In this document: piece by piece, positions 34,246 through 62,651 of the stretch | Layout of the letters: every line of letters starts with the position of its first letter | Position numbering within the stretch: position 1 is the stretch's first letter | Notes under the pieces: model-generated | What the model was told of the DNA's origin: nothing | The model's database searches: none | Seen by the model: only the letters and a program-made list of their open reading frames with translations | Assembly: GCA_049521895.1 (NCBI GenBank) | Contig: JBEKOJ010000001.1 | Coordinates: forward strand, 226,717 to 290,716 | Source of the DNA: Candidatus Saccharimonadales bacterium | Lineage (GTDB): Bacteria > Patescibacteriota > Saccharimonadia > Saccharimonadales > UBA10212 | Direction: 5' to 3' | Length of the DNA stretch: 64,000 nucleotides | Position numbers and translations under genes: made by a program

Positions 34246-34357
34246 GCTAGCAACCATGAAGTAACGTCCCGACTAGGAGGTTGTTTTATTGGCGTTCTTT
34301 TAGCAGAGTAGTTCAGTGTACGTGTAAACGACTACGAAAATGAGGAGATCTGACCAA

Positions 34358-34702
34358 ATGACGCAGGTATGGGACGTCGAAATTGATGGTCGACACATCA
34401 GAGTCAACACCGGTCGCTGCGAGATCAGCCGCATCCAAGGAACGGTCACCTTCCGAGACGGCGATCTCCGGGGCGAACGATGTTGCAACGAGGAGTCGAT
34501 CTTCGCGGCCGAGCTTGGCGATCGGGGAGAAAGAATCGTCACCACGCTGGGGCCACTCGCTCCCAGAACAAGCGTGCTGATCGCACGCAACAGCTTCAAG
34601 TTGTGCCTGCCCAACGAGGACGAGAGGATGATCGAAAGGGCGAAGACGCTCATCGACGGCCTCGAGGTTGCAATGATCCCCCAGATCGCGGCGGTCGCAT
34701 GA
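34358..34702 (+). CDS. GC-rich ORFan protein A (island 2)
   Basis: 114 aa starting from MTQVWDVEIDG, with GAGGAG 9 nt upstream. High GC3. Spurious ORFs overlap in several frames. Confidence 0.6.
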   Translation: MTQVWDVEIDGRHIRVNTGRCEISRIQGTVTFRDGDLRGERCCNEESIFAAELGDRGERIVTTLGPLAPRTSVLIARNSFKLCLPNEDERMIERAKTLIDGLEVAMIPQIAAVA

Positions 34703-34703
34703 G

Positions 34704-35036
34704 ATGTCCGACACCCTTCAAACAGAACGTTTGAGCTCTTCGCTCTGGCGCACCTGGGCACCACCGGACGTCGAGCTCAGCGACAGCTATCTCGTGATCC
34801 ACTTCGACGCGAGTGGAGATCCGCAACCAGTCCTACATACGGGCGGGCTGCGCACCGACAAGATCTCACTTACCGACGTCGGCAAAGCTGTACTGGATGC
34901 TGTCCACAACATCCGGGGTATCCCGATGGTTGGCATCTCGTGCCGGTTCGTGGATCTGTGCTTCACTGAATCCTGTCTCAGGGGAAGACCGGCACCTCTC
35001 GATACCGCCGAACAAGCACTGGCAAGCATCCTCTGA
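34704..35036 (+). CDS. GC-rich ORFan protein B (island 2)
   Basis: 110 aa. The start lies 1 nt after the stop of protein A (ATGAGATG). A strong terminator follows. Confidence 0.6.
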   Translation: MSDTLQTERLSSSLWRTWAPPDVELSDSYLVIHFDASGDPQPVLHTGGLRTDKISLTDVGKAVLDAVHNIRGIPMVGISCRFVDLCFTESCLRGRPAPLDTAEQALASIL

Positions 35037-49551: not shown

Positions 49552-52110
49552 CTAAACCCTTTCTGCCTTTAATTCTTTTTTAGCCGTAGCTGCTAGTTGA
49601 TCCAGCAATTGGTTAGTCTCTTGGGTAGTCAGCGTCCTTTCAGGATGGAACAAGGTTATACGCCAAGTGGTTTGCTTGTGGGTTTTGTCGCCGGCTTTCT
49701 GGAAAATGTCAATTGGCCGCCACCGGAATTCATAACCGTGCGGCTTGGTAAGCTGGGTTAAGTTTTTAACGATGAATTCAGCCAGTTCGGTGTAGCTAAG
49801 ATTCGCCGGGGCGCGCAGGCAAAAATCCTGCTCCACTTCCGGATAGCGGTTGAGAGGATAGTACTGATTGACCATAGCTAATTCTTGCAGCACCTTTACA
49901 TCAAACTCCAGTTGAGCCGTTCGCTCAGGTAATTTTAGACTTGATCGCAAACCTGCAGTTGGCTCACCAATCAGGCCAACTACCAGATTGCCGCTATAGA
50001 TCACTGCTGACCGCTGCGACTCAAATGCTTGAGCGGCTAGTGTCCAAGCGGGCGGTAATATATTTTTGCCCGCCAAAGGAACGTATTTCAGGGAGTAAAT
50101 TCCCAGATTCTGCGTCAAATAATCAGTGAATTTCCTAGCGACAAAATACGGAGCCCCCCAATTGGGACGAACTTGCAAAGTTGTTACAACTATTCCTAAA
50201 CGTTGTGGCTCGCTTGGTAGGCCCTCATTATCAAGAACGCCTTTAATATGAGTACGACCTAGTTCATAAATTGCAAAGTGGTCAAAGCCGGCTTTGATGT
50301 TGGGGTGAACTTTTTCCAGCAGGCTGGGTGTGAGGCTAAGGCGATAGTACTGCAGATTGGGGCTGAGAGCATTGGCCAGCTGGTAGGCCTGCCTGGGATC
50401 TTGACCGACTTTTTGCAACAGGCTGTCATGGACGAAACTGTAGGTCAGGATCTCGTTAGCGCCGGCTGCGGCCAGGATATTACGCAGGCGGTCTTTAAAA
50501 ACCACAACTGGGTTCAACGCGGCCGGTGACAGATCGCGCGGCGGCAGAACTAGCGGTAGCTGGTCATAGCCCTGCAGGCGGCCAATTTCTTCTACGATGT
50601 CTTCCGCGATCCCGATGTCAGTGCGCCAGAATGGCGGTGTAATTTTTAGGAAGTTGCCGCTAAGTTCTACTTCAAACTCCACATTCGTTAGCAGCTTTTG
50701 CATTTCTTTTGCTGACAGTTGCAGCCCGAGCCTTTGGTTTATGAATTCTGTCGATGCCTCCAATGCTTTTTGCTTGTTGCCTGTTGCTTGTTGCTCGAAG
50801 TCGTCTACGACTTCGCTGGCTTGGCGGCCGCCGGCAATTTTCTTGATATCCTCTGCAGCTTTAGCTAATACCGCCATGTTCTGCCGAGGGCTTTGGCCCT
50901 TCGTAAAACGGGTGGCCGCGTCGGTGAACAAACCATACGCCATGGCGGTTTTACGTGTCAGGTTCATGTCAAAATTGGCTACTTCCAGCACGATGTTCTT
51001 GGTACTTTCATCGACCTCGGTGCCAGCGCCGCCCATCACACCGCCCAGACCGATCGGTTTGTTGCCATCGGTGATCACCACGGCGCTTCCATCTAGTTTT
51101 ATGGTCTTGCCGCCCAGTAATTTAAGCTCCTCGCCTTTTTTGGACAGCCTAATTCCAATTACTACTTCTTGTTTCTTGTTTCCTGTTTCTTGTTTCTGCT
51201 GCACTAGCAGCTTATCGTAATCGTAGGCGTGCAGCGGCTGAGCGGTTTCCAGCATCACTAAGTTGGTGATGTCCACTATGTTGTTGACAGGCCGTACGCC
51301 CACGCGGACCAAGAAACTTTGCAGCCAAGCTGGGCTGGGCTCCACTCTGACGTCTTTAAAAGCTACAGCGCAAAATCGCGGGACCAGTTTCGGGACGCCA
51401 TTTTTGACTGTGATTTTCAGGACGTTTTTGCGTCCGTCAGCCGGCAAGCTAGCATTTTCGCGGTACCAATCTGGGCTTTTGAAAGCTTGGTGGTTGATGC
51501 CGGCGATTTCACGGACTACGCCCAGCATGCCAAAACAGTCCGGCCGGTGGGTGAACATTTTATTCTCAATATCAATGATGTGGTCGTCCAGCCAGAGTGT
51601 TTTGGCGAAGCTGTCGCCGGGTTTACCGTTTTCTAAAACCACAATCCCTTCATGGTTATCACCCAGGGCTAACTCTTTGGCACTAGCTAGCATTCCATGG
51701 CTAGTTTTACCTCTTATCTCACGGGGCTCGACGACAAATGGCTCCTTATCATAAGTGCTGGGCACAGTCACGCCGGGCGGAATCCAAACTGCCAGCTGGC
51801 CGGCTTTGACGTTCGGCGCACCACAGACAATCTCGATCAAACCGTCCTTGTTGCGTCTGACCTTCTTGTTCGCCCGGCCGTCGTCCACCAGACAGAAAGT
51901 GAGCTTATCGGCGTTTGGGTGTTTCTCGCAAGCGACAACTTTAACGACTAAAACACCATCATATTTTTTGCCAAGATTCACAACTTCTTCTACAGCGCCG
52001 AGCTGCGCGCCAATTTTCTCAACTAAAGCATTGATACCATCCGGCATCGGATTGGCTGCGCAGCCATATTCATCGTTAATAAATCTTATCCAGTTGACGC
52101 TAACTTTCAT
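49552..52110 (-). CDS. pheT: phenylalanine--tRNA ligase beta subunit
   Basis: 852 aa with tRNA-binding, B3/4, B5, catalytic-like and FDX-ACB domains. It contains two heptamer-repeat-encoded Q/K/E/T/G/N inserts (about 51168-51198 and 50771-50797). Confidence 0.95.
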   Translation of the reverse strand: MKVSVNWIRFINDEYGCAANPMPDGINALVEKIGAQLGAVEEVVNLGKKYDGVLVVKVVACEKHPNADKLTFCLVDDGRANKKVRRNKDGLIEIVCGAPNVKAGQLAVWIPPGVTVPSTYDKEPFVVEPREIRGKTSHGMLASAKELALGDNHEGIVVLENGKPGDSFAKTLWLDDHIIDIENKMFTHRPDCFGMLGVVREIAGINHQAFKSPDWYRENASLPADGRKNVLKITVKNGVPKLVPRFCAVAFKDVRVEPSPAWLQSFLVRVGVRPVNNIVDITNLVMLETAQPLHAYDYDKLLVQQKQETGNKKQEVVIGIRLSKKGEELKLLGGKTIKLDGSAVVITDGNKPIGLGGVMGGAGTEVDESTKNIVLEVANFDMNLTRKTAMAYGLFTDAATRFTKGQSPRQNMAVLAKAAEDIKKIAGGRQASEVVDDFEQQATGNKQKALEASTEFINQRLGLQLSAKEMQKLLTNVEFEVELSGNFLKITPPFWRTDIGIAEDIVEEIGRLQGYDQLPLVLPPRDLSPAALNPVVVFKDRLRNILAAAGANEILTYSFVHDSLLQKVGQDPRQAYQLANALSPNLQYYRLSLTPSLLEKVHPNIKAGFDHFAIYELGRTHIKGVLDNEGLPSEPQRLGIVVTTLQVRPNWGAPYFVARKFTDYLTQNLGIYSLKYVPLAGKNILPPAWTLAAQAFESQRSAVIYSGNLVVGLIGEPTAGLRSSLKLPERTAQLEFDVKVLQELAMVNQYYPLNRYPEVEQDFCLRAPANLSYTELAEFIVKNLTQLTKPHGYEFRWRPIDIFQKAGDKTHKQTTWRITLFHPERTLTTQETNQLLDQLAATAKKELKAERV

Positions 52111-52552
52111 CTATAGGCTCCCTGGTGTCAATAAAGTAACCGCGATCTTCGCCATCAACGTTGGTCCATTTTTCTCCAAGCTGTGCCACAAATATCCTAG
52201 TTGGGGCTTTGCCAGATGAATTATTCATTGATAGCTTAAAAACGGTGGATCGTGCGTTATAAATCTTTATAGCATCTCTGATTTGCACATTGTTTTCTAG
52301 CGCTTTTGCTGACGCCCGAATATATATTCCTTTTCCTTTCCCTTCAGGTAGCTGAGAGTTAAATATAGTAATGAAAATTTCTGGTCTGTGAATAATATTT
52401 TGGGAGTGCTGTGCTTTCAAAGGAGACCACCAGTAAATCTTGTTTTGATGGTACACATAAAAAAGAGGAGTGTTCCACGGCATGCCATCAAGAGTCACTG
52501 TGGCAACATTGCAATAAAGATTTTGACTTATAGTATCAGTGAATAAACTCAT
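52100..52552 (-). CDS. pyridoxamine 5'-phosphate oxidase-like FMN-binding fold protein
   Basis: 150 aa with a split-barrel-like pattern (GMPWNTPLFYVY...IYWWS). It is wedged between pheS and pheT and overlaps both. Confidence 0.55.
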   Translation of the reverse strand: MSLFTDTISQNLYCNVATVTLDGMPWNTPLFYVYHQNKIYWWSPLKAQHSQNIIHRPEIFITIFNSQLPEGKGKGIYIRASAKALENNVQIRDAIKIYNARSTVFKLSMNNSSGKAPTRIFVAQLGEKWTNVDGEDRGYFIDTREPIDES

Positions 52553-53574
52553 GGGAATTGCCTCAGGAATTTTAGATTGCCGCTATGAAAGTATCGAATG
52601 TCTTCGATGCCATACTTAAGCATCACTAGGCGATCTATGCCAAAGCCCCAAGCGAAACCGGTGTAAATTTTCGGGTCAATACTGCCTTCGCGCAGGACGT
52701 TCGGGTGGATCATGCCACAGCCGCCAAGCTCTATCCAGCCAGTATAGCTGCAGATATTGCAGCCTTTTTGGTCGCAGAAAATACAGCTGGCAGCGAATTC
52801 AAAACTTGGTTCGGTGAACGGGAAATAGAATGGTTGGATTTTGATTTTTATATCTTTCTGGTAGTAAGCGCTTAGCCAAGTTTTGATGGTTGCGACCAAG
52901 TGACCGGCATTGATGCCTTCATCGATATAAACGCCTTCCAGCTGATAGAAAGTGTGCTCGTGTCGGGCGTCAAGATCCTCGTTGCGGAAGACCCGGCCTG
53001 GTATGACAACGCGGATCGGCGGTTTTTGGCTTTTCATCACGCGGTTTTGCATGATGCTGGTGTGCGCCGGTGCAATCAGCCCTTCAGTAGTTACAAACGT
53101 GTCATACTCGTCGCGGGCCGGGTGCTCCGGCGGAAAATTCAGGCTGCTGAACATGTGGTAATCATCGTCAATCTCGCGTGATTCTACTACCGAAAATCCC
53201 ATCCGACCAAAGATATCTAAAATAATCTTTAATTCGGTGTTAATAGGGTGGCGGCTGCCGTTTTTGGCTGGCAATAACTCAGGGCGTTGGTCGACTGGAG
53301 TATTAATATCAAACGGCGCAGTAACATCGATAGTTTGTAGTTTGTAGTTTGTAGTTTGTAGGGATTCTCGAGTCAGGGATTCTAGGTCGGATTTGAGGTG
53401 ATTTACTTCTTTGCCAAAATCAGCTCGCGGCTTACCTGCCGGCAAAGTTTTAAGCCGGTCGTATAAAGCTGCCATCTCTGGTGCGCGTAAAATTGCCCGC
53501 TTATCTTCAAGCTTAGCAAGCTTATCTTTCAGCTGTTTGGCAGCCTTTGCGATCTCGGGATTTTTATACTCCAT
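52549..53574 (-). CDS. pheS: phenylalanine--tRNA ligase alpha subunit
   Basis: The start was trimmed to MEYKNPEIAK. Class II motifs are present (FRNEDLDARHEHTFYQLEG and GFAWGFGIDRL). The (TAGTTTG)x4 repeat at 53332-53361 encodes LQTTNYKLQT. Confidence 0.95.
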   Translation of the reverse strand: MEYKNPEIAKAAKQLKDKLAKLEDKRAILRAPEMAALYDRLKTLPAGKPRADFGKEVNHLKSDLESLTRESLQTTNYKLQTIDVTAPFDINTPVDQRPELLPAKNGSRHPINTELKIILDIFGRMGFSVVESREIDDDYHMFSSLNFPPEHPARDEYDTFVTTEGLIAPAHTSIMQNRVMKSQKPPIRVVIPGRVFRNEDLDARHEHTFYQLEGVYIDEGINAGHLVATIKTWLSAYYQKDIKIKIQPFYFPFTEPSFEFAASCIFCDQKGCNICSYTGWIELGGCGMIHPNVLREGSIDPKIYTGFAWGFGIDRLVMLKYGIEDIRYFHSGNLKFLRQFP

Positions 53575-53646
53575 AACTCGCTTTACAGTATAACAGCTCG
53601 CCGCCCCTGATAAACAATTGTTGCACTTCAAGATATACTTAAGCTT

Positions 53647-54969
53647 ATGGCTATAGACGAGTCAAAACTGCTGGATGAGGCCAAGAAAGTTCTGGCGCAC
53701 AATGACCGCAAAAAATGGACAGTCCCGGCAGGTGATTTATATCCGCATCAGTGGCTATGGGACAGTTGTCTTATTTCCATCGGTTTGCGGCATCTTGATA
53801 TCGACCGGGCGCAAATCGAATTGACCAGTCTGCTACAAGGCCAATGGAGCAACGGTATGCTACCGAATATAATTTTCTCAAGCGATGATAAGTACCACCG
53901 CGACCGCGAACTTTGGCGTAGTTATGTCAGTCCTTACTCGCCCGACAAGGTAGCCACCAGCGGTGTCACCCAGCCGCCGCTGTTGGCGGAGGCCGTAGTG
54001 CGCATTGGCCAAAAATTAAAGCAGCCAGAACGTCGCACTTGGTACAGGCAAATGTACCAGCCGCTAATCGAATATCACCAGTGGCTATACCGCGAGCGCA
54101 ATCCACACAATGAGGGCCTGATCGTTCTCCTGCATCCTTATGAAGGCGGTCTAGATAACGCTCCGCCTTGGATCAGCGAGCTCAGAAAACATAACATGCC
54201 TTTTTGGCTCACCCTAGTTGAAAAAGCCCACCTTGGTGGCATAATCGGCTTAGCCAGACGAGATACGCAGCATACAACCTTGGCCCAACGTATGGACAAC
54301 ATCGAAGCTGCGGCTTATTGGGCATCTATGCACCGTCTGCGGCGCAAAGCTTATAATAGCGAGGCTCTCTTTTCCCGTTCGCTTTTCACTGTGGAGGATC
54401 TGGCTTTCAACTGTATCTTGATCCAAGCCAATACCCGTCTGGCTGAGATAGCTAAGACCATCGGGCAAAAATTGCCAGACAATTTGGTACAATCGATACA
54501 CAAAACTGAATCCGCTCTGGAGCAACTATGGGATGAATCTACAGGCCAGTATTACTACCGTAGTTTTATTAGCCATAAACTGATAGAAGAATCGACTATT
54601 GCTACACTGCTGCCACTTTATGCTGGCTCAATCAGCAAAGACCGGGCCAAACAGCTGGTGGAATTACTCAATAGGCCCAAGCAGTTTGCGACTAAGTGGC
54701 CGGTGCCTAGTGTCCCCGCTAGTTCGCCATATTTTAATCCGTTTCGATACTGGCAAGGGCCAACCTGGATAAACACTAATTGGCTAATCATCGAGGGTCT
54801 TGGACTATATGGTTTTAGTAAAGAGGCAGCGTCGCTGCGCCAAAAAACTCTGGATTTAGTAGCCAAAAGCGGCTTTTACGAGTACTACAATCCTCTAACT
54901 GGCGAACCGGCCGGAGCCGCCAATTTTAGCTGGACCGCCGCCTTAATCATTGATTTATTGAAAGACTAG
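53647..54969 (+). CDS. (alpha/alpha)6-barrel glycoside hydrolase, GH63 / mannosylglycerate hydrolase / debranching-enzyme-like
   Basis: 440 aa with LWDSCLISIGL, HPYEGGLDNAPPW, YWQGPTWINTNW and EYYNPLTGEP.GAANFSWTAA. Confidence 0.7.
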   Translation: MAIDESKLLDEAKKVLAHNDRKKWTVPAGDLYPHQWLWDSCLISIGLRHLDIDRAQIELTSLLQGQWSNGMLPNIIFSSDDKYHRDRELWRSYVSPYSPDKVATSGVTQPPLLAEAVVRIGQKLKQPERRTWYRQMYQPLIEYHQWLYRERNPHNEGLIVLLHPYEGGLDNAPPWISELRKHNMPFWLTLVEKAHLGGIIGLARRDTQHTTLAQRMDNIEAAAYWASMHRLRRKAYNSEALFSRSLFTVEDLAFNCILIQANTRLAEIAKTIGQKLPDNLVQSIHKTESALEQLWDESTGQYYYRSFISHKLIEESTIATLLPLYAGSISKDRAKQLVELLNRPKQFATKWPVPSVPASSPYFNPFRYWQGPTWINTNWLIIEGLGLYGFSKEAASLRQKTLDLVAKSGFYEYYNPLTGEPAGAANFSWTAALIIDLLKD

Positions 54970-56030
54970 TCTTCTTCAAGATTGGGTTTATCTAGCAGCA
55001 TCGGCTCCACGGACGGTTCCACTTCAGCAATTTTAACAATGTCTTTATCGATTTTGCCCAATTCCTTATAGGTAGTATTGAAGTGTCCGACGGTTGTGTT
55101 GAGACTACCGCCTAGCTTTTGCATATAGCCGTAATGTGATACTAAATGTTTCTGTAACTGCTCGATATTTTTACGGATTCTTTCAGTGTCCTGATTAATC
55201 TGTATAGACCTCATACCTTGAATGATAATCTGTAAGTTTGCTGCGAGCGTGCTGGGGCCAACGATCGTGACCTTTTTTTCAGCAGCCGCATATTGGATGA
55301 GGTTTCTGCTGTTCACGCCCCCAGCACCAACTTTGTTAGCTAGTAAGTCATAGTAAATGCCCTCGCTAGGGATATACATAAAAGCTTGGTTAAGGGTGCC
55401 CCTGTTGGGTTTTATATACTTGGCTGTCTCGTCGATACGCTTTTTAAGGTCTTCTTTAAAGACACGCTCCAATGCTGGCTTTTCTTCGGGTTTGGCTTCA
55501 ACTAGCCGATTATAGTTTTCCAAGCTGAATTTACTGTCAACTGGAATCAGTTTATCGCCAAATTTTATAACTGCATCGACAATGAGACCTTCACCTAATT
55601 TATACTGGAGCTCATAAGTACCCGGAGGCAACATGTTTTTTAACGCTTGTTCCAGATAGAACTCGCCCAGAACACCTCGCTGCTTAGGGTTCTGTAGGAC
55701 ATTTTGTAGAGTTTTTAAGCCGTCTGCTACGTCTCCCACGCTCTTGTTGGTTCGTTCAATCTCCGTTAGCTGACGTGTTACTTCTTGAAGAGTTTTTATA
55801 TTCTGACCATGTTGCACGCCCATTTGTTTGTTGCTACTACTAAGTTGTTCGCTCAGTTGTTTTTGCAGACTGTCTTTAAGCTGGGCCATGCCTTTGGTGA
55901 GCTCCGTCATATCGGCCTTTAGCAGCATCGTGGCGTCAGAGCCGGTCTTTCTTGGCCGGGCGAAGTTCCAAAAAACAAACCCAGCCAGGGCTACGCACAA
56001 AACCGCCAAAATAATCACCGCCACAATCAT
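54966..56030 (-). CDS. rmuC: DNA recombination protein RmuC
   Basis: 354 aa with an N-terminal TM segment, a coiled coil, and a C-terminal nuclease-like region (DSKFSLENY, FMYIPSEG). Confidence 0.9.
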   Translation of the reverse strand: MIVAVIILAVLCVALAGFVFWNFARPRKTGSDATMLLKADMTELTKGMAQLKDSLQKQLSEQLSSSNKQMGVQHGQNIKTLQEVTRQLTEIERTNKSVGDVADGLKTLQNVLQNPKQRGVLGEFYLEQALKNMLPPGTYELQYKLGEGLIVDAVIKFGDKLIPVDSKFSLENYNRLVEAKPEEKPALERVFKEDLKKRIDETAKYIKPNRGTLNQAFMYIPSEGIYYDLLANKVGAGGVNSRNLIQYAAAEKKVTIVGPSTLAANLQIIIQGMRSIQINQDTERIRKNIEQLQKHLVSHYGYMQKLGGSLNTTVGHFNTTYKELGKIDKDIVKIAEVEPSVEPMLLDKPNLEED

Positions 56031-56031
56031 A

Positions 56032-56155
56032 CCCAGTAGTAGACTTTCTGTTGGCTATTCGCCAAAACTTACTTACTTCTATATTTTACCTGCCAAGTAT
56101 AGCTTTGTTATATACACTGTTCACTGCGAAACAGCACAGAAAGCTCACTACTGGG
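56032..56155 (-). mobile_element. ORF-less element, apparent internal-deletion derivative of the GIY-YIG copy
   Basis: The minus strand reads CCCAGTAGTGAGCTTTCTGTGCTG...AGCCAACAGAAAGTCTACTACTGGG. The subterminal sequence matches 58349-58661. It is flanked by CATG on one side and TATG on the other, and the TATG holds the rmuC start codon. Confidence 0.7.
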
Positions 56156-56164
56156 CATGCCTAT

Positions 56165-56170
56165 ATTGTA
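56165..56170 (-). promoter_or_regulatory. putative -10 box TACAAT (original rmuC promoter, leaderless type)
   Basis: On the minus strand, TACAAT-ATAGGC-ATG now leads into the inserted element. Confidence 0.4.
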
Positions 56171-56215
56171 GCTTAAGTTGGTAGTGCAACACGAGGCTGA
56201 TGCTAAACTAAAACC

Positions 56216-56851
56216 ATGAAAAACGACACAACTTGTCCTTCTTGCGGCAGTGTCCTAAGTAAGCCACCAAAACGAGACACGAAGTGCCCGGAGTGTGGCA
56301 AGATAATTTACGTTCGTGGGAAGCAACCTTTTTTTGATAAAACTTTGTTAACCGAAAAAGAGAAAATTGTATCTGATATATTCGAACAGCTTAGCAACAC
56401 TGCAGGTTACGGAGTCACTAAAGAAACATATCAAGAAACTCGCGACAGACTAACCAAAAAATGGGGAATGCAAGCAAGCTGGACAGATGTTACCCGAGCA
56501 GTACATGTTCAGTTGAGCCTCCGTTTCGCCAAAGAGGGCAATTTTCAACATTTAGCTTGGCTCGAATCCAGCATGGCTAATTTTTTATGGCAGAACCATG
56601 CAGATTTTCGGAACTCACAACTACAAAGCGCAAGATACAATTTGATGCTATTTAAAAAGGCGGGGGCTAAGTCAGCTTGGGTGGATGTCTCGACATCCGG
56701 TTGTACTGCGTGCAAAAGCTTGGATGGTAAGACTTTTGATATAACAGATGCTTTGCGCAATATACCTATCCCGCCGAAAGACTGTACTTGCAAGCCGGAC
56801 GAGAATCTTGCAAGAGGTTACTGTACCTGTTTGCTATACGCAAATTTCTAA
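56216..56851 (+). CDS. zinc-ribbon hypothetical protein
   Basis: 211 aa with an N-terminal CPSCG...CPECG and a C-terminal Cys cluster (CTACKSLDG...CTCKP...CTC). Confidence 0.5.
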   Translation: MKNDTTCPSCGSVLSKPPKRDTKCPECGKIIYVRGKQPFFDKTLLTEKEKIVSDIFEQLSNTAGYGVTKETYQETRDRLTKKWGMQASWTDVTRAVHVQLSLRFAKEGNFQHLAWLESSMANFLWQNHADFRNSQLQSARYNLMLFKKAGAKSAWVDVSTSGCTACKSLDGKTFDITDALRNIPIPPKDCTCKPDENLARGYCTCLLYANF

Positions 56852-57444
56852 CTCTGTATGGTAACGGTCGTGCCAACCGGTGCCCAGCCATAGAGCCATT
56901 TTGCGGCGGCCAGTGGCATTTCCACGCAGCCATGCGAAGCATTGGAAGAATTGGGGTCAATATTGCCAAAGTCACTAGCCGCCCGCCAAGTGGCATCGTG
57001 AAAACCATAAACACCGTAGTTATTAGATAGAAACGGCATCCAATAACTTACCGGGTCGTTCCAACAGCCAGTGGTATCGCAACCTTTAAGAACAGTGTCC
57101 GTTTGCTTAGCGTAAATTTTATAGGTGCCGGCTGGCGTTAGGTCTTCGGGCAGGTTTTCCATGCCGGTTATGACCGGGTTGTCGTAGACAGTTTTGCTGC
57201 TTTCGCAGACCCACATATGTCGCTTACTGATGCTGACAATTACCGCTTGGGCTGCCGTGTTGCCGGCGCAGTGGCTGGCCAGTTCTTCTGCCGCGGCTTT
57301 AGCGGCATCAGCTTTGGCGGTAGCGATTTTAGCCGTAGCGGCTGCTTTTTGCGACACTTGTTTAACCGTGTTTTGACGGTGGTAAACAAAAAAACCGGCA
57401 GCGGCTACAACTAAAATAACGGCGACAAGTTTTATTTTTAGCAT
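56848..57444 (-). CDS. L,D-transpeptidase (YkuD domain)
   Basis: 198 aa with an N-terminal TM segment, GFHDATW and the catalytic SHGCVEMP. Confidence 0.85.
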   Translation of the reverse strand: MLKIKLVAVILVVAAAGFFVYHRQNTVKQVSQKAAATAKIATAKADAAKAAAEELASHCAGNTAAQAVIVSISKRHMWVCESSKTVYDNPVITGMENLPEDLTPAGTYKIYAKQTDTVLKGCDTTGCWNDPVSYWMPFLSNNYGVYGFHDATWRAASDFGNIDPNSSNASHGCVEMPLAAAKWLYGWAPVGTTVTIQS

Positions 57445-57460
57445 CGTGTTCTTAATTATA

Positions 57461-57547
57461 CCCAGTAGTAGACTTTTGAGCGAGCCCGCATGTCTGCGGG
57501 CTCATATATCCACCGGGGATGGATAATCTCAAAAGCTCACTACTGGG
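57461..57547 (-). mobile_element. ORF-less CCCAGTAG-terminus element (87 nt, three-way junction form)
   Basis: The minus strand reads CCCAGTAGTGAGCTTTTGAG...CTCAAAAGTCTACTACTGGG. The hairpins are ATCCATC-CCC-GGTGGAT and GAGCCCGC-AGACAT-GCGGGCTC. TATAA (TTATA on the plus strand) flanks both sides. Confidence 0.7.
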
Positions 57548-57554
57548 TTATACC

Positions 57555-58280
57555 TTAGACGAAACGGGTAACGACAAACATGAAAACCGTACCAAGAACC
57601 GTCAGGCCGATAGTTGTACGTGAGGAATTCTTGCTGTGAGCCTGCGGCAAAATATCACTGGCTCCGATATAGAGCAAGAAACCAGCAAAAAAACCAAGAT
57701 AAAGTACCAGCCACCTATCAGGGACGCTGAATAGCAAGGTGGAAGCCGCTCCCAAAACCGGCGCGATGGCATCTAGGAATAGTAGCTTTTTAGCTCGGCT
57801 GGCTTCATTTTTATTATGCAGCATTAAAATCACGGTGTTCATTCCATCGGTAAAGTCATGGGCGATGACGGCTATAGCTACAGTGATGCCAACGGCATTA
57901 CCGGCCTGAAAGCCAAGACCGATGCCAACACCATCCAAAAAGCTGTGTCCGGACAGCGCTAGCGCGCTGGCGATGCCGACCTTTGGGTGAACATGTTTGC
58001 CGTATTCTTTTTCTTGCGCGTAGTGCAACAAGATCGTTTTTTCTAAGATGTGAAATAGCAAAAACGCTAAAACAAGTGCCACCATCGGCCGCACAAAAGC
58101 GGTATGGGTAGAATTCACCTCATTGGCGATTTCCGGCAGCAGGTCAAAGGCCACCACGCCCAGCAGCACGCCAGCAGTGTAGCCCATAATACGATGTAAG
58201 ATTTTTTGGTTTCTTAGCGCCGTGATTCCACCTGTGAGCGTAGAAAAGAAGGTGGCGCCGGAAAGTAATATTGGAAGCAT
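57555..58280 (-). CDS. zupT: ZIP family metal (zinc) transporter
   Basis: 241 aa with about 8 TM segments. The motifs HSFLDGVGIG and HDFTDG are typical of ZIP/ZupT. Confidence 0.85.
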   Translation of the reverse strand: MLPILLSGATFFSTLTGGITALRNQKILHRIMGYTAGVLLGVVAFDLLPEIANEVNSTHTAFVRPMVALVLAFLLFHILEKTILLHYAQEKEYGKHVHPKVGIASALALSGHSFLDGVGIGLGFQAGNAVGITVAIAVIAHDFTDGMNTVILMLHNKNEASRAKKLLFLDAIAPVLGAASTLLFSVPDRWLVLYLGFFAGFLLYIGASDILPQAHSKNSSRTTIGLTVLGTVFMFVVTRFV

Positions 58281-58333
58281 GGGCTAAAGCATAAACAAAG
58301 TGCTAATATATTTGCAAATTTGTCGCAAAAATA

Positions 58334-58339
58334 TACAAT
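58334..58339 (+). promoter_or_regulatory. putative -10 box TACAAT (original fur-family promoter, leaderless type)
   Basis: TACAAT-ATTGAT-ATG. This ATG (58346) is now fused in frame to the GIY-YIG ORF. Confidence 0.4.
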
Positions 58340-58345
58340 ATTGAT

Positions 58346-58660
58346 ATGCCTAGTAGTGAGCTTTCTATAGTGTTCTGCTATGTCTACGTTTTATACTCTA
58401 ATGTCAGCAAGAGCTTCTATGTAGGTTTTACGCATGATCTTAAGAAGAGGATTGCAGAACACAATAAGGGCTTAATTTTTTCTACAAAAGGCTATAAGCC
58501 CTGGGAGTTAATTTATTACGAGGCGCATGCTAAAGAGGCAGACGGCAGACGCCGTGAAAAATATCTAAAGACCACGGCAGGGGATAGAGCTTTACATAGA
58601 ATGCTTAGAGGGAAGCTGACTGAGGTGAAAAATTTAAGCCGACAGAAAGTCTACTACTAG
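58346..58660 (+). CDS. GIY-YIG nuclease family protein (small COG2827/UPF0213-like)
   Basis: YVYVLYS-x6-FYVGFT-DLKKRIAEHNKG...ELIYYE...REKYLKT matches the GIY-YIG pattern. The tracked ATG (58346) is the duplicated host start codon, and an internal GTG at 58370 is an alternative start. The stop TAG lies inside the right terminus. Confidence 0.85.
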   Translation: MPSSELSIVFCYVYVLYSNVSKSFYVGFTHDLKKRIAEHNKGLIFSTKGYKPWELIYYEAHAKEADGRRREKYLKTTAGDRALHRMLRGKLTEVKNLSRQKVYY

Positions 58661-58661
58661 G
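58349..58661 (+). mobile_element. ORF-bearing CCTAGTAG-terminus element (GIY-YIG nuclease cargo)
   Basis: CCTAGTAGTGAGCTTTC...GAAAGTCTACTACTAGG encloses a single ORF. A TATG direct duplication flanks it (58345-58348 and 58662-58665). Confidence 0.75.
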
Positions 58662-58662
58662 T

Positions 58663-59079
58663 ATGCAACACAACACTCTTAAAGCGCTTTTAAAGAAAGA
58701 CGGCGCCAGTCTGACTAAGCCACGCAAAATCGTATTTGACCTGTTACTCAACCAGGAGCCACAGAGTATGAAAGTTTTGACCCAGAGGGCTGCCGGCAAA
58801 GTTGACCGGGCGACCGTTTATCGCACCGTGGAGCTATTTGAGCGTTTAGGTATTGTCCACCGCTTAAATATCGGCTGGAAATATAAAATGGAGCTAAGTG
58901 ACGTATTTCATGCCCACCACCACCATTTTTATTGCACCAATTGCAATAAAACATACCCCTTGCCCGCCAACCCTATGCTAGAGACCATGATAGATAGCAC
59001 GGTGGCCAAGGACGGTTTCTCGCCACGCGGCCATCAACTAGAAGTTTACGGCCTATGCGCCCAGTGTTCTCGCGGCTAA
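58663..59079 (+). CDS. Fur family transcriptional regulator (Zur-like by context)
   Basis: 138 aa with a winged helix, then HHHHFYCTNC and CAQC metal sites. It is divergent from zupT. Confidence 0.85.
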   Translation: MQHNTLKALLKKDGASLTKPRKIVFDLLLNQEPQSMKVLTQRAAGKVDRATVYRTVELFERLGIVHRLNIGWKYKMELSDVFHAHHHHFYCTNCNKTYPLPANPMLETMIDSTVAKDGFSPRGHQLEVYGLCAQCSRG

Positions 59080-59140
59080 GTTCTCCTCGCCGTTCTTAGC
59101 TAAATCTCAGCTAATTCTGTTGTTATGATTTAGACAAATT

Positions 59141-60637
59141 ATGAATTTTGCGGCGAAACTTTATCAGCGACCACTAGATCTTGTCGATAGCCTGCTTGAT
59201 GGCATAACTTCTTACCGTTTATTACTCTATTTCCTCTTGACGGTTCTAGGCTGGGCTACGCTGGCCAGTTTCAGGGGGAATGTTCCCTTTAGCTGGCACG
59301 CCATCGTTTTTTCTGCACTGGCACTGGTGATAGTCTGCCGGCTAAGCGGGGAGTTTTTCGCCCGCGTTTTAAACATCGCCCGTAATTTTGAATCTGATTA
59401 CATAACGGCGTTGATTTTGGCCCTAATTATGAGTCCAGCGACCACCTTGAAGGGTTTCGCGATTCTGGTAGGAGCGGGTTTTGCTGCCATTGCTTCTAAG
59501 TATTTATTGACCATCGGCCGGCGTCATATCCTTAATCCGGCCGCAGCTGGCGCCGTTGTCGCCGGAGTATTTTTTGGGCAGTATGCCAGCTGGTGGGTCG
59601 GCACGGCAGTACTGGCACCGCTAGTACTGGTTGGCGGCTTATTAATAATGCGTAAAATGAAACGGTTCTACATGGTCGCAGGTTTTGCGTTAGTTTACGG
59701 CGTGTTTCTGCATCACCAATTTGATGGCGCTCCGGCCCTGCATACCATATGGCTGGCGGCGTCCGGTACTGCCGTGATGTTTTTTGCTTTCATCATGCTG
59801 ACCGAGCCTTTAACGTTGCCGGACTTGGCTATGCGCTATATGCCGTACGCCGTTTTGGTAGCCGTCCTATATAGCGTTAACCGTTTGCGGCTGGCCCCAG
59901 AAGAAGCTCTGCTGATCGGCAACGTTTTTGCCTACGCACTGGAACGCGGCAAGCGACTGGAGTTGAGCTTAAATAGCGTGCGCAAAGAGGCCGAGGGGAT
60001 ATATAGTTTCGTCTTTACTTACCACGGCGCTTTTAATTTCAAGCCCGGGCAGTACATGGAATGGACGCTGCCGCTTCGCCATAGTGACAGCCGCGGTAAC
60101 CGGCGTTATTTAACCCTTTCCTCAGCACCGACCGAAAACCAGCTAATGTTTACGGTTCGTTTGCCGCGCCGGGCAAGCCATTTCAAAAAAGCTTTAGCGG
60201 CTTCTAAGCCGGGCGGCAAGATATTAGCCTCGCACCTCGCCGGCTCGTTCGTTCTGCCCGGCGACGATAGCAAAAAACTGGCATTTATCGCCGGCGGCAT
60301 TGGTGTTACACCTTTCCGTTCGATGATTAAATATGTGGTAGACAGCCGCCAGCAGCGGCCAATTAGCCTACTGTATGCCGCTAACCACGCCAACGAATTC
60401 GCCTTCACCCAGTTGCTTAAGCAAGCCGAGCCTTTTGGTATTACTACCAATTATCTTGACACTTCCAAGCGCAGCCTCGACCAACAGGCTATCGTCGAAA
60501 ATTTGCCGGACTGGCGAGAGCGGCATTTTTATTTGTCTGGACCTTACGGATTTGTAAAATCAGTGCGGGAATCACTTTTGGATATGGGTGTGAGCCTGAG
60601 AAATATTAAGTCCGATTATTTTCCCGGCTACGGCTAA
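59141..60637 (+). CDS. polytopic membrane domain fused to an FNR-like FAD/NAD(P)-binding oxidoreductase
   Basis: 498 aa with about 7 TM segments in the N-terminal half. The C-terminal half has RRYLTLSS (RxYS FAD motif) and GGIGVTPFRSM (NAD motif). Confidence 0.75.
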   Translation: MNFAAKLYQRPLDLVDSLLDGITSYRLLLYFLLTVLGWATLASFRGNVPFSWHAIVFSALALVIVCRLSGEFFARVLNIARNFESDYITALILALIMSPATTLKGFAILVGAGFAAIASKYLLTIGRRHILNPAAAGAVVAGVFFGQYASWWVGTAVLAPLVLVGGLLIMRKMKRFYMVAGFALVYGVFLHHQFDGAPALHTIWLAASGTAVMFFAFIMLTEPLTLPDLAMRYMPYAVLVAVLYSVNRLRLAPEEALLIGNVFAYALERGKRLELSLNSVRKEAEGIYSFVFTYHGAFNFKPGQYMEWTLPLRHSDSRGNRRYLTLSSAPTENQLMFTVRLPRRASHFKKALAASKPGGKILASHLAGSFVLPGDDSKKLAFIAGGIGVTPFRSMIKYVVDSRQQRPISLLYAANHANEFAFTQLLKQAEPFGITTNYLDTSKRSLDQQAIVENLPDWRERHFYLSGPYGFVKSVRESLLDMGVSLRNIKSDYFPGYG

Positions 60638-60787
60638 GGATCATTTTTCAGCTATGAAAACGGGCACGAATTTTGCTACGAGCGATTTTAAATAATCGCG
60701 AGCGTTCGTGCCCAAAATGAGCGGAACTCAGAGGCCCGAGGAACGAATTCCAAGGGCCTCCAAGTCCCAAGAGACGAAGTCTCAGTG

Positions 60788-61606
60788 CTACGACTCCCTG
60801 ACCACCGGCGCAGCCCAGTTGCTTCTGACGCGGTCTGCCCAGCCGGCGTCCAGGCCGACCTCGCGGCTGACCCTGTCCCCGTAGAGGTACAGAACGCTCG
60901 TCCAGGGCTGGTCGTCGGGCACCGTGGCCTCGAAACCGGCCATGTCGGCATACGGCAGGTTCGTTCCGTCTTGCTGCCTGAGCAGCTCGTCGTGAACGGC
61001 GTAGGCCGCCAGGACTTCAGCGGCCGCCAGGGTCTCGCCCGTGCGGGCGGCCTGCTCACGAACCTGAAGCACCGAACGGCCGTCTTCTGGCTCCCAGTGA
61101 GCCACCAGGTTGATCCGGATCCGATGGATGCCGGGCTCGTACCAGCGGGCAGTCGGCGTCAGGCGCAGATGGTTGGAGTCGATTTTCAAACCGTCGTAAC
61201 ACCGGGCGTTGGGCTGATTGGCCTTGATGGCCCGCCAGTACGCTTCGACGTTGCCTTCCGACGACCCGAACTCGATGTAGAAGATCTCAAGGTCGTTGAC
61301 GCTCTGGACGTGGTCGCTGGAGGTGTCGACGGTATCGAACCAACCGACCGACTTGATCTGGCCGTCCAAGACACTGAGGTCGAGAACTTGCCAGAGGTTC
61401 AGCTGATCTTCGAGGCTCAGAAGATGCAGCCTGTAGCGGTCGAAGCGGATCTGCTGCAGCTGCTCTTTCAGTGCAGCAACCATAGGATCGACCAACTCCG
61501 GCTGCTTGATAAGCGCCCGCGCCATTTCGGCGTCGAGACCGCTCTGAGAAAGGATGCGATAAAGTTCCACATCCTCTCCCTTGGTGATGTCGTAAAGGCT
61601 TGCCAT
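60788..61606 (-). CDS. GC-rich ORFan protein (island 3)
   Basis: The start was trimmed to MASLYDITKG, with GGGAGG 9 nt upstream. 272 aa, high GC3, with spurious overlapping ORFs on both strands. No motif was recognised. Confidence 0.6.
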   Translation of the reverse strand: MASLYDITKGEDVELYRILSQSGLDAEMARALIKQPELVDPMVAALKEQLQQIRFDRYRLHLLSLEDQLNLWQVLDLSVLDGQIKSVGWFDTVDTSSDHVQSVNDLEIFYIEFGSSEGNVEAYWRAIKANQPNARCYDGLKIDSNHLRLTPTARWYEPGIHRIRINLVAHWEPEDGRSVLQVREQAARTGETLAAAEVLAAYAVHDELLRQQDGTNLPYADMAGFEATVPDDQPWTSVLYLYGDRVSREVGLDAGWADRVRSNWAAPVVRES

Positions 61607-61826
61607 TTCTGGCTGACCTCCCTTTGGTACGCCGCCAGGCTGACTCATTATCCGCGCATCGCGAGCGTAGAAAGCTTACCCGTTTGAGAACGGCATATTG
61701 GGGCTAAGTTTTGGCCCCAAAATGCCGCCCTCAACTTAAAGGTATCGGGGGTTGTAGCTTAACCCGCCAAATTTTCTTTGAAATTTTAGGCGGGTAAATC
61801 TGTTAAGGTACAATAGGCAAATTATA

Positions 61827-62522
61827 CTATTTAAGCTTATTCTTGTCAACTATTATTACCTCGTAGCCGGGTTGTTTTTTAATGAATTCAACGCAGGCAA
61901 GACCCATAACAAAACAGGCTGTCGCTAAGACGTCGGCTTTGATGATGTCCGGCCCGGTGACTGTCAGGCTCAGTAGCTCATTGGCTGGGCGGCCGGTTTT
62001 AGGATTAATGATGTGCTTACCGCGCTCATAAGTACCGCTGGTGGCAACCGCCCCGTTCGAAACACTTAGCGTGTTAAGTATTTTTGATTTATTGCGCGGA
62101 TCCTGAATACCAATATTCCAAGTTTTGGCACTGTTGGAGCGCGCCAGAATATCGCCGCCGGCGCCGATACAATAAGTTTTATAGCCGGCCTTTTCTATCG
62201 CCTTCCCCGCCTCCTTAATTCCGTAACCTTTGACATAGCCGGTAGGGTTAAATTTGCCTTCAAAATGCGCCGAAAAGTAGCCATCCGTGTATTTTTCCGC
62301 CTGTTTGCAGGCCCGTATGACTCGTTTCATCTCCCTGCTTAAGTCTGATTCTTTGATTTCGCCGCGCCTGAATTTACTGAGTTCACTGGCTGGCTTATAG
62401 GGGCTAAAGCGATTATCAATAGCCTCCAAACACCTAAAAGCAGCGATAAACGGCGCCTCAGTGCGGGCAGCTGGAATATCAATGCTGATGGGCAGACCCA
62501 TAATGAATTCGACGCGTCTCAT
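61827..62522 (-). CDS. apbE: FAD:protein FMN transferase (ApbE family), short form
   Basis: 231 aa with MGLPISIDI, IGAGGD, ATSGTYERG and ADVLATACFVMG. Confidence 0.85.
   Translation of the reverse strand: MRRVEFIMGLPISIDIPAARTEAPFIAAFRCLEAIDNRFSPYKPASELSKFRRGEIKESDLSREMKRVIRACKQAEKYTDGYFSAHFEGKFNPTGYVKGYGIKEAGKAIEKAGYKTYCIGAGGDILARSNSAKTWNIGIQDPRNKSKILNTLSVSNGAVATSGTYERGKHIINPKTGRPANELLSLTVTGPDIIKADVLATACFVMGLACVEFIKKQPGYEVIIVDKNKLK
62063..62080. repeat. iterated palindrome copy (CACTTAGC-GT-GTTAAGTA)
   Basis: Two changes relative to the consensus. The copy lies inside apbE and reads CTT AAC ACG CTA AGT = LNTLS. Confidence 0.55.
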
Positions 62523-62651
62523 TCATTTACCATTTTACATTTAACATTTCACATTTATTTAACAGGTAACATTTGGACATTGTAGCGGCAATGACAAATG
62601 GCTGAATGCCAAAATAAATGCTAAATGACAAATGACAAATGTTAAGTGCCG

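Follow-up and report, generated by a model that had tools for sequence, protein, structure and literature searches.

The DNA analysed here, a stretch of 64,000 nucleotides (the window) of contig JBEKOJ010000001.1 from a Candidatus Saccharimonadales bacterium, carries near its end a GC-rich island with a gene for a 272-aa protein, which lies within a cluster of redox genes. This gene is a member of a family of genes encoding variable (target) proteins of diversity-generating retroelements (DGRs), and not an ORFan, as had been proposed in the original prediction, which was made from the DNA letters alone. A search for homologs of its product returned 54 proteins at E <= 1e-3 when a word-indexed search was used and 246 cluster representatives when the search was exhaustive; those that carry a name are all assigned to Candidatus Saccharimonadales. 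Patescibacteria are rich in DGRs and DGR targets, and both are well known. Results of our analysis indicate that the island is probably a solo target module of such an element, currently frozen, although several observations discussed below weigh against this interpretation.

Target gene family

The assignment of the gene to a DGR target family is based on the organization of loci that encode its homologs. In all five loci with sufficient flanking sequence (L001-L004 and L017), the products of which are 44-54% identical to the window protein as estimated by alignment or tblastn, the gene is followed within about 0.3-1.5 kb by a template repeat (TR), then by bAvd, which is encoded on the opposite strand, and then by the gene of a reverse transcriptase (RT; RVT_1). 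In one more locus, L015, the 3' end of avd is located directly past the gene, at the contig end. The pairing of variable repeats (VRs) with TRs covers six copies in the five loci, two of them in L017, and the paired repeats are 123-131 nt long. Substitutions in the six copies concern TR adenines in 18/20, 20/20, 21/21, 19/19, 11/11, and 10/10 cases, which gives a total of 99 of 101. The VR and TR sequences part right after ...GGTCAGGGA, where the VR goes on with GTCGTAG, including the stop codon, and the TR with CTGCTCGA. In four 90% clusters of the family (P0050, P0032, P0025, and P0020), all variable positions (18/18, 18/18, 14/14, and 9/9, respectively) are within the last 45 residues. Further targets of the family appear to be paired with DGR RT matches (P0004/P0228, P0031/P0207, P0013/P0260, and P0047/P0209), and the cassettes of the homologs comprise avd and an RT, the latter being 50-93% identical to many Patescibacteria RTs.

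Certain features of the cassette-bearing loci deserve a separate description. All five complete cassettes contain avd between the TR and the RT gene, encoded on the opposite strand. Locus L017 (L017:9812-13731) contains two tandem target modules that have one TR in common, each with its own promoter, leader, VR, hairpins, and terminator, which indicates that the module duplicates as a unit. In L015 (L015:10001-10993; P0003/P0470), the putative VR is Asn-rich and TR-like (NWNRNDRKVNLNANWAENVNNN), and the contig ends inside avd about 40 nt past the gene; this TR-like appearance probably results from the collapse of the VR onto the TR during assembly.

Organization of the target module

The elements of the module, all of them on the minus strand of the window, are as follows:

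61821..61849, minus strand: sigma-70 promoter TTGACA-17-TATAAT, with 12/12 consensus match; its -35 box and spacer double as the end of the ApbE gene
61607..61820, minus strand: leader of about 210 nt, with hairpins at 61762-61795 and 61684-61734, a segment identical to that of L022, and a Shine-Dalgarno (SD) sequence
60788..61606, minus strand: DGR variable-protein (target) gene, 272 aa (open reading frame (ORF) calling, homology, AlphaFold2 (AF2) models)
60795..60922, minus strand: VR, 128 nt, encoding the last ~43 residues (nhmmer match to a profile of five TRs, E = 8e-18)
60771..60783, minus strand: post-VR hairpin 1, GAGAC-TTC-GTCTC, 5 bp, in 7/7 loci, with compensatory stem changes
60723..60768, minus strand: post-VR hairpin 2, a three-tier stem of about 20 bp with TTCG loop and 21-nt repeat arms (inverted repeat, consensus fold)
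60656..60713, minus strand: terminator-like hairpin GGGCACGAA...TTCGTGCCC followed by GTTTTC, the 3' edge of the module

Homologs of this promoter precede the target genes of L001 and L002. The leader contains two pairs of inverted repeats (61684-61707/61711-61734 and 61756-61771/61786-61801), of which the former corresponds to a hairpin with an RNAalifold consensus of 22 pairs, including 6 with compensatory changes, in 8/8 loci. This long hairpin, of the form TTGAG..CGGCA...TGCCG..CTCAA, is common to the window, L001-L004, L015, L017, and L022. The last ~50 nt of the leader, up to just past the ATG (61602-61651), are 100% identical in the window and in L022, the proteins of which are 52% identical. 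A scan of the region 60500-62000 against Rfam gave no credible match, also for the leader hairpin. The SD sequence GGGAGG that had been predicted is indeed present, at 61617-61622, with a spacing of 10 nt to the ATG of the 272-aa product and not of 9 nt.

Post-VR hairpin 1 begins 4 nt past the stop codon and 11 nt past the end of VR/TR homology. Both post-VR hairpins together have a folding energy (dG) of -38.4 kcal/mol (z = -7.3), and the two-hairpin architecture is present in 7/7 family loci, with a consensus of 21 pairs, 10 of which show compensatory changes. Their loops are TTC, TTCG, or TTTT and deviate from the 5'-GRNA sense-strand consensus of phages. Efficient retrohoming in phage BPP-1 requires a hairpin that is GC-rich, has a loop of 4 nt, and is located 4-34 bp past the VR (PMC3240598). 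Hairpin 2 of the window likely represents the target-recognition hairpin/cruciform of the DGR. The arms of the terminator hairpin (60662-60670/60705-60713) form a perfect 9-nt repeat, and the same terminator element, ending with GTTTTCATA, is found in L004 and L022. In the cassette-bearing relatives, the TR promoter and the TR come after this element. The hairpins that the original prediction had placed on both sides of the island were thus recovered as inverted repeats at 60662-60713, 61684-61734, and 61756-61801; the two post-VR repeats, at 60723-60768 and 60771-60783, had been missed.

Variable repeat of the window gene

The VR is the only match to the five-TR profile in the DNA that we read, namely, the window and an extension (L005) of 7.6 kb past its end, which together amount to 71.6 kb or about 9% of the ~0.77 Mb genome; L005 belongs to the same genome as the window, with identity across 50788-64000. 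The 3' end of the VR (about 60795-60817) is a GC-rich invariant segment similar to the initiation of mutagenic homing (IMH) sequence, followed by the VR-type junction GGGA/GTCGTAG. The junction sequence, ...CTGGGCTGCGCCGGTGGTCAGGGA/GTCGTAG, is of the type found in the VRs of L001 and L002 and not of the TR type. The cis elements that identify a VR as a recipient are all intact.

The adenine test of this VR was done with the five family TRs as the reference in place of the copy's own TR. Changes were found in 12 of 21 columns in which all TRs have adenine vs. 3 of 47 invariant non-adenine columns (Fisher p = 1.1e-5), and this bias indicates that the window VR was once written by adenine mutagenesis. 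The three framework positions differ from all five TRs, and one of them, a TGG-to-GGG change, removes a Trp residue that nearly all relatives have.

The window protein occurs in exactly the same form on 20 contigs (13 with the 272-aa call and 7 with the 286-aa call) from at least 10 samples. Its 90% cluster contains no variants, and all public assemblies of the organism have the same VR. Hypervariability between populations, which is seen in four sister clusters, is thus not a property of the window VR.

Insertion into the redox gene cluster

The module is located between two convergent genes of the redox cluster, and the genes relevant to this arrangement are:

59141..60637, plus strand: FNR-like membrane oxidoreductase (RnfD-like N-terminus and NAD_binding_1), convergent with the inserted gene
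61827..63143, minus strand: ApbE (61827-62522) and FMN_bind protein (62652-63143), upstream of the insert and co-directional with it

For comparison, we used four relatives (L018-L021), the FNR-like proteins of which are 71, 66, 66, and 53% identical to that of the window. All four have the gene order Fur - MFS - Pyr_redox_2 - FNR-like (plus strand) - ApbE (minus strand) - FMN_bind (minus strand), and in all four the 3' ends of the FNR-like and ApbE genes abut or overlap, with zero genes between them. The uninterrupted junction in 4/4 relatives indicates that it is the window that carries an insertion, in agreement with the proposal that the island splits a redox module. The insert, of about 1.2 kb (60656-61849), has edges that could be drawn from homology with the L022 module: it starts at the promoter, about 61849, and ends about 60660, just past the terminator hairpin. 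The tail of the window ApbE (DKNKLK*) is encoded by the promoter of the insert and is unlike the ApbE tail of every relative.

No direct repeat or target-site duplication was found at the insert boundaries, no tRNA gene in the region 50000-64000, and no integrase among the neighbouring genes; a tblastn search gave no match that would point to a phage or plasmid origin. An exact 11-nt direct repeat, ATCGCGAGCGT, occurs twice in the module, in the terminator loop (60695-60705) and in the leader (61658-61668), and not at the boundaries; it may be a chance match, about 0.3 of such repeats being expected.

The locus is not an assembly artefact and the contig is not chimeric. Ten independent assemblies of the region (loci from JGI, ENA, and Logan, with an overlap of up to 20.8 kb) were compared: eight of them show no difference, a single mismatch, located outside the island, was found in the ninth, and the tenth deviates only in the last bases of its contig. 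Both insert junctions are identical in all ten.

Search for the donor half of the element

Neither blastn nor nhmmer with the TR profile detected a second TR-like copy in the window and L005, while in L001, which was used as a positive control, both the TR and the VR were recovered. Similarly, tblastn with four RTs and four Avds as queries revealed no avd and no DGR-type RT gene in the window and L005. The only RT encoded nearby (L005 2462-3409) was considered as a candidate and rejected, because its identity to the family RTs amounts to only 22-29% and the models that it matches best are those of retron RTs. Collections of metagenomes, GTDB genomes, and viruses gave no exact match to the 23-mer of the VR 3' end; as not even the VR was returned, these collections do not contain this genome. 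The RT profile search concerned the best 120 of 6208 matches, and the RTs of L003 and L004 are not among these 120.

Other solo copies

Two more solo copies of the target gene were identified. One of them, L022 (L022:8001-9100), is located in a Saccharimonadales-like contig and has no TR, avd, or RT. Its leader and terminator are close to those of the window, and the sequence TTGTTATAAT past its terminator resembles the TR promoter of the cassette loci. The VR of this copy is decayed, with 12/47 framework changes and an indel.

The second, L024 (L024:8001-8696), encodes a homolog 52% identical to the window protein, with a VR-type 3' end and with no hairpins, TR, avd, or RT. It shows diffuse drift along the whole protein. 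Its contig is of high GC content (0.68 in the flanks), and the neighbouring genes cluster with those of Solirubrobacteraceae (Actinomycetota). The L024 copy nests inside the Saccharimonadales clade, which argues for transfer into an actinobacterium and not for actinobacterial origin; it suggests a cross-phylum transfer. An actinobacterial origin of the family is accordingly unsupported. A genome related to that of L024 (L025) has no copy beside the same luciferase-like gene. The module may move back and forth between Saccharimonadales and Actinomycetota of high GC content, the phylum to which known hosts of Saccharibacteria belong.

In the non-VR core, the nearest relatives of the window protein are P0004 and P0003. 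Both are cassette-linked, which indicates that the solo state is derived.

GC excess of the target gene

The description of the island as GC-rich, compositionally odd, and self-contained was confirmed. The GC content of the ORF is 0.618 vs. the window mean of 0.494 (z = 3.55); a GC content this high is reached in only 0.16% of segments of 861 nt. The GC content at codon positions 1, 2, and 3 is 0.67, 0.40, and 0.78, respectively. The GC content at third positions (GC3), 0.78-0.80, exceeds that of the 54 window ORFs (0.523 +/- 0.067), so that the excess concerns synonymous sites. Neither the leader nor the terminator region of the island is GC-rich.

The same trait characterizes the family. In nine Saccharimonadales copies that we compared, located at different chromosomal sites and encoding proteins about 40-76% identical to the window protein, the GC content is 0.61-0.69 and GC3 is 0.74-0.90 in all nine, while the flanks have a GC content of 0.45-0.52, i.e., the excess is +11 to +18 points. 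The avd and RT genes of the relatives themselves are host-like (GC 0.42-0.50). In terms of GC3, the family targets (0.74-0.90) differ from host genes and from the avd and RT genes of the cassettes (about 0.45-0.53). The GC3-rich targets are:

window 60788-61606
L001 7926-8798
L002 8001-8867
L003 8001-8813
L004 8001-8834
L015 about 10001-10849
L017 9812-10657 and 10947-11804
L022 8001-8819

In 7/7 of the genes for which a GC3 profile along the gene was drawn, GC3 climbs toward the VR. The high GC content is thus a family-wide trait and not the mark of a donor, and its cause is unexplained. Homologs with the same GC content do occur across the clade, albeit not at the same position as in the window, so that the refuting condition named in the original prediction applies in part. 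Canonical DGR mutagenesis is confined to the VR, and so it fails to explain the gene-wide GC3 excess. Expression-linked codon bias was tried as the cause and rejected, as the ribosomal-protein, RecA, and FtsH genes of the same loci have a GC3 of 0.43-0.49. One possible cause is GC-biased repair, the tracts of which would extend in the 5' direction upon repeated retrohoming of cDNA at the VR; another is selection for a recipient gene poor in A and T. That the GC3 excess is a property maintained in these DGR targets, rather than a scar left by horizontal transfer, is a tentative and rather doubtful proposal. If it were true, a "GC-rich ORFan island" could serve as a compositional beacon for Patescibacteria DGR targets, including solo copies.

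For two other GC-rich islands of the window, the original prediction had raised the question of whether they share a donor lineage with the one described here. Island 1 (11104-11688, plus strand) is a 194-aa multi-pass membrane ORF with a GC3 of 0.86, and island 2 (34340-35036, plus strand) is a pair of small ORFs with a GC content of about 0.59; neither has a Pfam match. The common origin could not be upheld, as blastp and Pfam searches revealed no similarity of these islands to island 3. Their codon usage is like that of island 3 (r = 0.54-0.78, with r = 0.78 for island 1), which is what any GC3-rich ORFs would show.

Interpretation and alternative explanations

We propose that the island is one complete DGR target module, composed of a promoter, a structured leader, a variable-protein gene with 3' VR, an IMH-like end, two post-VR hairpins, and a terminator, which was inserted between the convergent FNR-like and ApbE genes without the donor half (TR, avd, and RT) beside it. 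Either TR-avd-RT would have been deleted or the target module alone would have been copied to this place. The gene may now encode a solo ligand-binding protein of fixed specificity, in which an alpha/beta scaffold would present ~43 VR-encoded residues and the last strand would derive from the invariant IMH segment. It would be expressed from its own consensus promoter, whereas its GC-rich codon usage is inherited from the gene family.

Several observations weigh against this proposal. The main alternative is that the gene is a live target whose VR is rewritten in trans, perhaps rarely or conditionally, by a DGR cassette located elsewhere in the 0.77 Mb genome. More than 90% of this genome is outside the ~9% that was read in the donor search, and the RT profile search was non-exhaustive, with known family RTs not among the best 120 of 6208 matches. 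The VR retains its adenine-specific pattern and has hardly decayed: its framework changes are 3/47 as compared with 0-2 in active VRs, and it outscores one active VR against the TR profile. The intact VR-type junction, GC-rich IMH-like end, and both hairpins would also be the look of an active remote target, and non-adjacent and remote DGR targets have been documented (PMC5758913). The invariance of the VR comes from consensus assemblies and a highly clonal population, so that the DGR could be quiescent rather than absent. The C-type-lectin fold considered below for the protein is weakly supported as well (Foldseek E = 0.18-0.8). Nevertheless, in 7/7 cassette-bearing relatives the cassette is directly downstream (TR, avd, and RT in L001-L004 and L017; avd in L015), and DGR targets of the candidate phyla radiation (CPR) are reported to be mostly single and adjacent, remote ones at a distance of >100 kb having been seen only in another lineage (PMC5758913). 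Moreover, there are zero VR variants in at least 20 assemblies, whereas the four sister clusters vary only in the VR, and the near-invariant family Trp codon TGG, which is not DGR-mutable, is GGG in the window. No RT among the best 120 of 6208 profile matches was assigned to this genome, although this is a weak argument. Taken together, an explanation by a live remote target seems possible, yet less likely than that by a solo, frozen module.

Along the lines of the original prediction, the island could be viewed as an ORFan operon that was recently acquired from a donor lineage rich in GC, and as one of three islands with a common donor. This view fits the atypical composition, the lack of the insert at the same site in four relatives, the presence of one homolog in a high-GC Solirubrobacteraceae contig, and the codon usage similar to that of island 1. 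It is, in our opinion, very improbable: the gene has homologs, the GC excess is found in 9/9 Saccharimonadales copies with host-like partner avd and RT genes, the actinobacterial copy is nested in the Saccharimonadales clade, and other Saccharimonadales modules have a homologous promoter, leader, and terminator. Similarly, neither sequence similarity to islands 1 and 2 nor an integrase, a tRNA gene, or a flanking target-site duplication accompanies it. As to an artefact in the form of a chimeric contig or a spurious high-GC ORF, the high GC content does yield a long antisense ORF (60785-61687, plus strand, 300 aa), but the identity of the junctions in ten assemblies, the codon-position pattern of the minus-strand ORF (0.67/0.40/0.78), and at least 54 homologs combined with a confident predicted fold make it negligible. 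The antisense ORF, which spans the island, is a by-product of high GC content and does not represent a gene.

Predicted properties of the window protein

The ORF extends from 60788 to 61648 (minus strand) and can encode 286 aa, from an alternative upstream ATG at 61648, or 272 aa, from the ATG at 61606-61604. Most homologs begin at the equivalent start, MASLYDIT, which makes the 272-aa form the likely product. The window protein and 30 of its relatives gave no match to Pfam, NCBIfam, PADLOC, or PHROGs, and a profile search of PDB sequences with the window protein returned nothing relevant. The protein is acidic and predicted to be soluble, with no signal peptide and no hydrophobic segment (maximum Kyte-Doolittle value, KD(19), of 0.83).

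The AF2 models have a predicted local distance difference test (pLDDT) score of 89.7 for the full length and of 94.8 for residues 95-272. In these models, the N-terminal ~90 residues are helical and the C-terminal domain is of the alpha/beta type; its last strands correspond to the VR, with the invariant IMH-like segment encoding the final one. The best Foldseek matches in PDB are C-type lectin domains (of thrombomodulin, MCL, DCIR, NKG2D, and DC-SIGN), with E = 0.18-3 and TM-scores of 0.26-0.44, values that are not significant. They are suggestive of a C-type-lectin fold, and the constant alpha/beta scaffold may be C-type-lectin-like in the predicted structure.

Comparison with known systems

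Similarly to Mtd of Bordetella phage BPP-1, TvpA of Treponema denticola, and AvpA of Nanoarchaeota, the window protein has its C-terminal ~43 residues encoded by a VR, which in the homologs is paired with a TR differing from it at adenines. The last beta-strand is in all of them derived from the invariant IMH segment (PMC5006420; predicted model in the case of the window protein). Metazoan C-type lectin domains are the best structural matches of AvpA (PMC5006420) and also of the window protein, although Foldseek matches of the latter are not significant. As opposed to these proteins, the window protein has no detectable sequence similarity to solved structures or Pfam families, it lacks a signal peptide, a membrane segment, and a phage-tail context, and no TR, avd, or RT adjoins its gene.

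The host lineage is that of the cellular DGRs of CPR/Patescibacteria (clade 2 of Roux et al. 2021; CPR sets of Wu et al. 2018 and Paul et al. 2017), and the window protein resembles CPR DGR targets in being small and acidic, with no recognisable domains and no hydrophobic segment (PMC8144416). The window locus differs from those DGRs in holding the target half alone. The surveys of CPR DGRs required the presence of a VR beside the RT (PMC8144416), and hence a copy such as that of the window would go unlisted. Remote DGR targets described for Treponema, Legionella, and cyanobacterial lineage 4 (Wu et al. 2018) are likewise VR genes with an IMH end and a hairpin but with no adjoining RT. Unlike the window gene, they have a matching TR in the same genome, while no such TR was found in the 71.6 kb and the VR is invariant across assemblies.

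A GC-rich stem-loop shortly downstream of the VR is a common feature of the window module and the IMH with hairpin/cruciform of BPP-1 (Guo et al. 2011, PMC3240598), at a distance of 11 nt in the former and 4-34 nt in phages. In both, the stem sequence varies with the pairing kept, and the loop is of 4 nt. The differences concern the number of hairpins (two vs. one), the size of the second one (about 20 bp and three-tiered vs. 7-10 bp in phages), and the loop in the sense strand (TTCG or TTTT vs. GRNA).

The resolution of an apparent ORFan island as an element of a known kind shows that composition-based transfer calls can mislead in reduced genomes, because the GC excess is in this case a property of the gene family rather than of a donor. 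With the window, L022, and L024, three solo target modules are documented, to which RT-anchored surveys are blind; such modules bear on the question of how hypervariable binders turn into fixed, domesticated genes. Three observations are, in our opinion, modestly new: the solo state with a frozen VR, the excess of GC3 throughout the family, and the conservation of the leader hairpin. The GC3 anomaly of the family, the leader hairpin with no Rfam family, and the likely transfer into an actinobacterium are testable side observations.

Other features of the region

Upstream of the FNR-like gene (58346-59140), the window genome lacks the MFS and Pyr_redox_2 genes that L018-L021 have between Fur and the FNR-like gene, and a GIY-YIG gene (58346-58660) is placed between the ZIP gene and Fur. 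About 4.3 kb past the window end, in L005:2462-6418 (about 65.2-69.1 kb in the window numbering), an RT of the retron type is encoded, which is 315 aa long and has a YYDD motif. It matches the PADLOC models of retron RT_II-A (1.8e-24) and RT_III-A, at 1e-23 to 1e-24, and stands at the end of a row of four co-directional genes that lack annotation; of these, one has a weak GNAT match and another a weak nucleotidyltransferase match. This region may be a retron defence locus.

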